DNA from: a virus
Virus genome (UHGV): UHGV-0132373
Length of the DNA: 29,781 nucleotides
Strand: one strand, 5' to 3'
Below the pieces are notes generated by a model. That model was not told the DNA's origin. It made no database searches and saw only the letters and a list, made by a program, of their open reading frames with translations. The position numbers and the translations under genes were made by a program. Within the stretch, counting starts at the first letter, position 1, and the number at the start of each line of letters is the position of its first letter. Below are positions 24,001 through 24,330 of the stretch, piece after piece.

Positions 24001-24330
24001 TTAGTCATCCATGGATGGATTGAGCTTATCTCGTGTTGATGTGGCAATTTTACCAACATTTTTCAACCAAGATTTTAAGAAGGATATGTCGTCCTTAATA
24101 TCATGAATATCCTCATTCTTTATACGATCAACCTTATCCTCTAGGCTCTCTATAGAACGCTCAATGCTAGACAGAGAGATTTTTAAGTCTCCTTGCTCAC
24201 GTTCCAGTGAGGATTTGAGAGCACAATATTCGTTTTCTAGAATTCCTATTTTTTTTGTTAGAGAGTGCATTCGATACTCATACACCAAACTAGAAACGAC
24301 TAATGCAGCCAACAGAAACCATTCAAGCAC
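24001..24330 (-). CDS. small membrane-anchored coiled-coil protein (cargo operon gene 3)
   Basis: 109 aa from GTG 24330 with AAGGAGGT five nt upstream; N-terminal TM helix (LEWFLLAALVVSSLVY), then a charged heptad-like region (…LEREQGDLKISLSSIERSIESLEDKVDRIKNEDIHDIKDD…). AT-rich. No recognised family. Confidence 0.6.
   Translation of the reverse strand: MLEWFLLAALVVSSLVYEYRMHSLTKKIGILENEYCALKSSLEREQGDLKISLSSIERSIESLEDKVDRIKNEDIHDIKDDISFLKSWLKNVGKIATSTRDKLNPSMDD

Follow-up and report, generated by a model that had tools for sequence, protein, structure and literature searches.

SieA of phage P22 is an exclusion protein shown to be located in the inner membrane. It occurs solely in P22-like prophages, its gene is carried by only about a third of P22-like phages, and a single chromosomal copy of sieA preceded by just 85 bp of its upstream DNA gives full exclusion (Leavitt et al., PMC10883804). 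The protein has 162–164 amino acids (aa), three predicted transmembrane (TM) helices (four in types B and C) and a cytoplasmic FxRYPxEAxxFNK motif; its gene, located between genes 16 and 9 within the "ant moron", reads leftward and is convergent to gene 16. Another exclusion protein, gp15 of the long-tailed phage HK97, is cited in the same article as moron-encoded (PMC10883804). The window analysed here, UHGV virus genome UHGV-0132373 (29,781 nucleotides, nt), carries in the sieA position the gene hkcB, which the epsilon34 genome paper lists merely as an ant-moron gene of unknown function (PMC2629481). New in this analysis are the finding that hkcB and sieA alternate as cassettes after a single leader, Shine-Dalgarno (SD) sequence and GTG start, and the match in architecture between HkcB and HK97 gp15; an exclusion role for HkcB is plausible.

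By sequence comparison, the open reading frame (ORF) at 24001–24330 on the minus strand is hkcB of P22-like (Lederbergvirus) phages, as in HK620, CUS-3 and epsilon34. Its product is 98% identical to HK620 HkcB (AAK28903.1) and 50% identical to epsilon34 gp14 and CUS-3 HkcB, and it matches phrog_5962 (function unknown) with an E-value of 5e-61, residues 2–109 aligning with profile positions 2–109 of 109. The features of the family are all present, namely the profile match, the position abutting gene 16, and a TM helix and coiled coil with a W-x-x-N-V-G...T-R/K motif at the C-terminal end. Length, GTG start with SD, and abutment to gene 16 are as in HK620, epsilon34 and CUS-3, from which nothing substantive differs; like CUS-3, the window has the native leader replaced by a pair of genes, orf199 and a yafO-like gene. 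The ORF has been known and named since 2001. RefSeq labels its product "hypothetical protein", and a literature search for the name "hkcB" returned unrelated acronyms only. The features of the gene are:

24001–24330, minus strand: hkcB coding sequence, 109 codons (109 aa), GTG start and TAA stop (ORF list, translation and family match)
24335–24342, minus strand: hkcB SD AAGGAGGT, read as AAGGAGG(T), with a spacer of 5 nt to the GTG
24331–24346, minus strand: remnant of the start cassette, AACTAAGGAGGTTGGT, the last 16 nt of the leader (upstream alignment)
24280–24327, minus strand: codons 2–17, hydrophobic (TM) helix LEWFLLAALVVSSLVY (Kyte-Doolittle 1.92)
24046–24270, minus strand: codons 21–95, heptad-patterned amphipathic helix, a coiled coil (heptad analysis, AlphaFold and PDB search)
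24004–24078, minus strand: codons 85–109, best-conserved segment LKSWLKNVGKIATSTRDKLNPSMDD (invariant columns and dN/dS)
23998–24003, both strands: convergent stops TAA/TTA of gp16, then hkcB, with a spacer of 0

A preliminary description of this ORF, made from the letters alone, had proposed a GTG start behind a strong SD and a stop codon directly abutting that of convergent gene 16, with no terminator between the two, and each of these points held. The GTG occupies 24330–24328 (minus strand) and the SD 24342–24335; upstream, the frame is closed by a stop at 24369 and contains no earlier start codon. Internal ATGs are unconserved in the alignment, which supports the GTG as the real start, and M21 was ruled out as the true start since other variants lack it. 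The hkcB TAA (24003–24001, minus strand) and the gp16 TAA (23998–24000) together form the palindrome TAATTA. At this junction a terminator scan and an inverted-repeat search found no terminator-like hairpin and Rfam gave no match, and a hidden terminator or RNA element there was rejected.

The same arrangement is seen across the family. Among 45 hkcB loci (41 from IMG/VR, three reference phages and the window, out of ~85 related loci compared overall), the gap to gene 16 is 0 in 43, even where other stop pairs (TGA/TCA, TAA/CTA) are used. Abutment and missing terminator being family-wide, they are not special to this window. All copies are intact except one frameshifted pseudogene (L038, around 5278–5603, on a contig shared with L053). 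Every one of the 44 intact copies begins with GTG, ~50%-identical protein variants included, and all keep the SD, with AAGGGGG, CCGGAGG or TTGGAGG in a few.

The start signals are the part of the gene that connects it with sieA. In the upstream alignment, a cassette of 35–40 nt, CATsTGGTATCCTGCnCAAAACTAAGGAGGTTGGTGTG, precedes hkcB in at least eight unrelated upstream contexts, and P22 sieA is preceded by the same leader, SD and GTG. Between HK620 hkcB and P22 sieA, more than 110 nt upstream are identical through the GTG, and the coding sequences beyond it are unrelated; the sieA promoter is annotated within this shared stretch in the P22 record. On this alignment, the GTG start of hkcB is inherited with the start cassette that P22 sieA also uses. 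The window keeps only the 16 nt nearest the start, the distal part (CATsTGGTATCCTGCnCAA) having been replaced by the 3' end of the yafO-like gene. The two genes do not occur together: 41 phage records have sieA and 8 have hkcB, with an overlap of 0; tblastn did not find SieA in 44 hkcB loci, and the SieA motif is absent from 125 loci except in P22 itself. Because they share a cassette and never co-occur, hkcB and sieA are alternative bodies of one expression slot that runs from the cassette to the gene 16 stop. The location of sieA, its leftward orientation and a leader of the PsieA type are thus all found at hkcB, the distance to gene 16 being 22 nt for sieA and 0 for hkcB.

HkcB is predicted to be a 12.6-kDa bitopic inner-membrane protein, with a tail of 1–3 residues without positive charge, one TM helix, a coiled coil of ~75 residues and a conserved C-terminal motif. 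The single N-terminal TM helix and the charged coiled coil named in the preliminary description were both recovered. Residues 1–17 have a mean Kyte-Doolittle value of 1.92 over 17 residues, and although the sequence of this segment diverges among HkcB variants, its hydrophobicity is kept in all. Residues 21–103 are heptad-periodic, with Leu, Ile, Val or Met at 67–78% of a/d positions compared to 28% overall, and there is one register shift near residue 72. The AlphaFold2 model is a single continuous helix over residues 2–103 (mean predicted local distance difference test score, pLDDT, of 87), and a fold search of BFVD gave no matches, as expected for a single helix. The positive-inside rule is established knowledge, and the window protein has no Lys or Arg (K/R) ahead of the TM helix and three in the next 15 residues. 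The same holds for 8 of 8 family members examined (0 before, 2–3 within 15 residues after). Because K/R flank the TM helix only on its C-terminal side, the N-terminus is predicted to be outside and the coiled coil cytoplasmic. HkcB contains a single hydrophobic segment. Together, the analyses support hkcB as a genuine gene for a membrane-anchored coiled-coil protein, the membrane location being predicted.

Comparison with known membrane proteins gives both likenesses and differences. The first TM helix of SieA has the same charge pattern as that of HkcB, with an uncharged or acidic N-terminal tail and a basic cluster after the helix; unlike SieA, HkcB has a single TM helix and a long coiled coil and does not contain FxRYPxEAxxFNK. 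HK97 gp15, when translated, has 62 aa and consists of MEP, a TM helix, RFSTR and then a charged helix. Both proteins are moron-encoded, and in both a tail free of K/R leads into an N-terminal TM helix, which is followed by basic residues and a charged amphipathic helix, so that HkcB is in architecture a longer version of gp15, which is about half as long. The gp15 gene differs in setting, being co-oriented with tail genes inside the virion-gene operon, and its product acts on long-tailed phages. An N-terminal TM helix followed by a coiled coil, at a size similar to HkcB, is also seen in i-spanins (lambda Rz, P22 gp15) and FtsB/DivIC-type proteins. Lambda Rz and E. coli FtsB have a positively charged N-terminal tail and a periplasmic coiled coil, whereas the charge distribution of HkcB predicts the opposite orientation.

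Selection on HkcB is strongest at its C-terminal end. The invariant columns (W88, N91, V92, G93, I95–R100, K102, N104 and S106) cluster in SWLKNVGxIATSTRDKLNPS. Synonymous sites between HkcB types are saturated (proportion of synonymous differences, pS, 0.55–0.8). The ratio of nonsynonymous to synonymous substitution (dN/dS) of the coding sequence ranges from 0.1 to 0.5, and for the last 44 codons it is about 0.1–0.2 (proportion of nonsynonymous differences, pN, 0.13–0.17). By these values, strong purifying selection acts on the C-terminal 44 residues. A "KIAT..TR" string common to HkcB and the gp16 C-terminus is at chance level and is not kept in HK620 gp16, and mimicry of an ejection or tail protein segment was set aside because the HkcB profile matches nothing else in the window.

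Exclusion has been demonstrated for SieA, and for HkcB we infer it. Our preferred reading is tentative: HkcB may be an inner-membrane exclusion protein that obstructs the gp20/gp16 conduit through which superinfecting P22-like phages deliver their DNA, which we regard as quite possible while stopping short of calling it probable. HkcB would sit in the inner membrane, like SieA and HK97 gp15, and block completion or use of the conduit; its coiled coil would be an oligomerising stalk, and the conserved C-terminal segment the interacting part. A more specific form is somewhat more doubtful. It takes HkcB to be a second, non-homologous injection blocker, a functional "allele" of SieA that is swapped as a cassette and whose C-terminal motif would engage, on the cytoplasmic side, either the conduit's gp16 end or a host factor, for example YajC; its exclusion spectrum may then differ from that of SieA, for example by covering HK620-type ejection proteins that partly escape SieA. 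The slot of sieA, the expression signals of sieA and the architecture of a proven exclusion protein make hkcB a concrete exclusion candidate. If the exclusion reading is right, two unrelated membrane proteins that block one conduit would help to define a vulnerable step in gp20/gp16 channel formation, and the locus adjacent to gene 16 would be a cassette-exchange site for exclusion genes.

Several observations weigh against exclusion at the conduit. HkcB and P22 SieA gave no BLASTP alignment even at E <= 100, and BLAST gave no local alignment between HkcB and HK97 gp15 at the same threshold. Pfam, NCBIfam and PDB searches produced no specific family match, only weak, generic, sub-threshold coiled coils, and no PADLOC model stood above noise (DpdH, 18.4 bits, E 4.5e-4, over the TM helix and coiled coil only). 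Among 80 loci with a related gp16 C-terminus, hkcB is present in only about half, the slot otherwise holding a lipoprotein of ~160 aa in 14 loci, a soluble protein of ~140 aa in 9, or no obvious gene; because the soluble protein uses the same cassette, neither slot nor cassette fixes what the encoded protein does. HkcB types and gp16 types combine independently, with no hint of co-evolution with the presumed target, and a cytoplasmic coiled coil would make no direct contact with the periplasmic gp20 tube. Topology and promoter assignments of hkcB are themselves predictions. If the exclusion reading fails, hkcB stays an ordinary conserved hypothetical gene of the ant moron.

Gene content and order identify the window as a segment of a P22-like genome: the ant moron comes after genes 7, 20 and 16, and the tailspike gene (27081–29072) after the moron. 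The moron consists of hkcB, the yafO-like gene, orf199 and mnt reading leftward, arc and ant reading rightward, and sar RNA antisense on the minus strand. The window is a mosaic that combines an HK620-type hkcB with a gp16 and a yafO module of CUS-3 type, and its gp16 resembles P22 gp16 over the N-terminal ~190 aa only. The features around hkcB are:

21841–24000, plus strand: gene 16 (ejection protein gp16, CUS-3 type, 719 aa), last of the ejection-protein cluster (99% identity to CUS-3 gp16)
24350–24378, minus strand: weak promoter-like site TTAACT-17-TAAAAT inside the 3' end of the yafO-like gene, a possible substitute hkcB promoter (score 9/12)
24353–24772, minus strand: gene for a YafO-like toxin of 139 aa, ending 22 nt upstream of hkcB (PF13957, E 7e-12, score 45.7 bits where the cut-off is 25; phrog_1651)
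24757–25356, minus strand: orf199, presumed to encode the partner (antitoxin?) of the YafO-like protein, whose gene start it overlaps by 16 nt (ORF list)
25399–25647, minus strand: mnt, the maintenance repressor gene with which the leftward unit begins (98–99% identity to CUS-3 Mnt)
25675–25703, minus strand: Pmnt-like promoter TTGAGA-17-TATCAT (promoter scan; position matches Pmnt/Pant annotated in P22)
26888–26907, plus strand: first plus-strand terminator-like hairpin after gene 16, the t-ant equivalent (terminator scan; P22 t-ant is at the same relative position)

The divergent Pant/Pmnt pair lies at 25670–25703 and the sar antisense RNA at 25900–25967 (minus strand, RF00262, 95.6 bits), between arc and ant; with mnt, arc, ant and sar, the immI region looks complete.

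From the arrangement of these signals, hkcB is probably expressed at a low level in lysogens, and in the window by read-through from Pmnt. Low-level prophage expression is most likely because leader, SD and GTG are shared with sieA in most phages; in an HK620-type context, the hkcB transcription start would fall within GGTATCCTG, downstream of a TATCAT/TTTCAT hexamer. Since the native leader of the window was replaced when the pair inserted, read-through across orf199 and the yafO-like gene is the likely route there. Co-transcription from Pmnt is plausible, because mnt, orf199, the yafO-like gene and hkcB are closely spaced with no terminator predicted between them. The TTAACT-17-TAAAAT site is a lead only, since such sites occur at chance level in the region. 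A plus-strand promoter-like site, TTGAGA-17-TAGAAT (10/12), lies inside hkcB at 24215–24243 and is identical in HK620 (L002 4316–4344). It points at hkcC in HK620, and in the window its transcripts would be antisense to the yafO-like gene and the 5' end of hkcB.

Late transcription that crosses the ant moron and enters the tailspike gene has already been described for P22 (PMC2629481). The preliminary description had late transcripts toward the tailspike running antisense across this region, in agreement with the finding that the first plus-strand terminator-like hairpin after gene 16 is the one at 26888–26907. The missing terminator at the hkcB junction makes sense because late transcripts must pass it to reach the tailspike gene. 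When the phage grows lytically, late transcription from gene 16, being antiterminated, crosses hkcB antisense and probably damps its expression.

Other functions for HkcB have to be set against conduit exclusion. The preliminary description had noted that small single-pass membrane proteins are common exclusion or abortive-infection (Abi) effectors; for HkcB, that idea is something we infer. As an Abi or suicide effector, a dormant HkcB would be triggered on infection, for example by an ejection protein, oligomerise, depolarise or permeabilise the inner membrane and kill the cell before phage release. Its small size, single TM pass and oligomerising helix suit this, as does the frequency of toxin- or defence-type genes in the ant moron (the yafO-like gene here, a Panacea-domain gene in the UMNF18 prophage), and the weak PADLOC match to DpdH covers the TM helix and the first half of the coiled coil. 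We consider it unlikely nonetheless: one short TM segment of ~17 residues has no amphipathic pore-lining features, the gene is apparently expressed constitutively from a sieA-type leader with no obvious partner or antidote, and constraint is strongest on the hydrophilic C-terminal motif rather than on the TM helix. The DpdH score is at noise level for a protein composed of a TM helix and a coiled coil; the match was judged compositional, and no dpd genes lie nearby. A lysogenic-conversion factor outside phage defence, that is, a membrane-tethered cytoplasmic coiled coil altering a host envelope, division or stress function, would agree with the predicted cytoplasmic orientation, which suits a host-protein target, with the common occurrence of host-fitness genes in morons, and with the varied sources of the E. 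coli genomes that carry hkcB (82, plus about 35, of 5426). This too we hold to be improbable, given that the family keeps to P22-like prophages and to the place beside gene 16, whereas a gene of general host fitness should also turn up in other kinds of phage and at other positions, and that hkcB is allelic with a proven exclusion gene. An accessory role in the lytic cycle (spanin-like, holin-modulating, or as a membrane factor for the phage's own gp16 in assembly or entry) is suggested by the likeness of a TM helix plus coiled coil to i-spanins, by the strict adjacency to gene 16 and by matches to XhlA (E 0.05), the Rz-like spanin phrog_739 (E 0.077) and P2 Rz1 (E 0.052), all of which are below significance. 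Such a role is very unlikely, since hkcB opposes the late operon and would be silenced rather than expressed late. It also lies outside the lysis cassette and on the opposite strand, has no embedded or adjacent lipoprotein (lipobox) partner ORF and does not encode the N-terminal positive charge of type II i-spanins; as about half of the phages that share this gp16 type do not carry it, gp16 can function without it.

The neighbouring genes offer one more explanation, in which HkcB would be the third component of a toxin-antitoxin-type module with orf199, in which no known domain was found, and the YafO-like protein. Only 22 nt separate the yafO-like stop from the hkcB start, the lack of a predicted terminator between them makes co-transcription likely in the window, and the same arrangement is found in CUS-3, L029, L034, L035 and L039. 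These and the window are the only loci with the pair upstream of hkcB. In Pectobacterium chromosomes the pair stands alone, without hkcB, between an ABC transporter operon and gcvP (L131–L133, 4001–5004), and most hkcB loci are without the pair: HK620 (with divergent neighbour hkcC), epsilon34, the UMNF18 prophage (with a Panacea-domain neighbour) and about 35 IMG/VR loci, where hkcB has its own leader or a divergent neighbour. Both HkcB sequence types are joined to one yafO end, which indicates modular recombination at the SD. These independent distributions largely refute hkcB as an obligatory part of a YafO-type module, and we give that explanation hardly any credence. By the same distributions, the orf199/yafO-like pair is an autonomous two-gene module, and hkcB is a conserved resident of the slot adjacent to gene 16 and not "cargo" in an evolutionary sense. 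The preliminary description had placed hkcB at the end of a cargo operon; it is indeed the last of four close leftward genes with no predicted terminator among them, but by distribution the supposed operon consists of two independent units.

The family is small and keeps to one genomic setting. A profile search of 1.84 billion representative proteins returned about 7 HkcB family clusters and then generic coiled coils, and a contig scan of species-representative genomes with the family alignment found no relatives. Of 5426 complete E. coli genomes, 82 contain HK620-type hkcB over >=80% of its length, and about 35 more give partial or lower-identity matches. All contexts examined are P22-like prophages in which hkcB converges closely on gene 16, and hkcB is always downstream of, and co-oriented with, mnt. 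Relatives with ~30% identity (P0030 and P0032) keep the architecture and the W-x-x-N-V-G motif. These remote relatives are 3–4 nt from a large convergent ORF, which for P0030 is a gp16 homologue, and the P0030 gene (L128) lies directly downstream of mnt at a distance of 36 nt. In that prophage (L128 5319–7931), gp16 has 870 aa and combines the P22_gp16 domain with a fused SLT (lytic transglycosylase) domain.

Variants of the locus were also seen. In chimeric genes (L127 252–587; P0022 and P0023), the last ~45 HkcB residues follow, in frame, an N-terminal domain of unrelated sequence (MKVLKWQSTGDVGISS...); these genes still abut gene 16, and they show a recombination joint inside hkcB. The ~160-aa lipoprotein (MKKSLLIIPLLLAGC...) of L083–L103 (e.g. 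L083 4485–5010, minus strand) lies 2 nt from the gp16 stop, and the ~140-aa soluble protein of L108–L117 (e.g. L108 4504–4993, minus strand) starts with the AAGGAGGTTGGTGTG cassette of hkcB and sieA; neither has a Pfam match. The prophage of E. coli UMNF18 (L126 6699–7148) has a 100%-identical hkcB, and its divergent Panacea-domain neighbour is another toxin-antitoxin or defence-type insert in the ant moron.

The C-terminal region of gp16 contains a Gly/Ala-rich hydrophobic stretch (window 23650–23740, plus strand) followed by a conserved helical tail of ~75 residues, which is 80–100% identical across gp16 types that are otherwise 61–77% identical. By BLASTP, gp16 of CUS-3 (L001 1942–4098) and HK620 (L002 1933–4098) are 77% identical; they have been described as "only 26% identical", a figure used to explain different SieA sensitivity (PMC10883804). 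A 100-aa ORF with hydrophobic segments is present at 29149–29451 (plus strand), just 3' of the tailspike gene.

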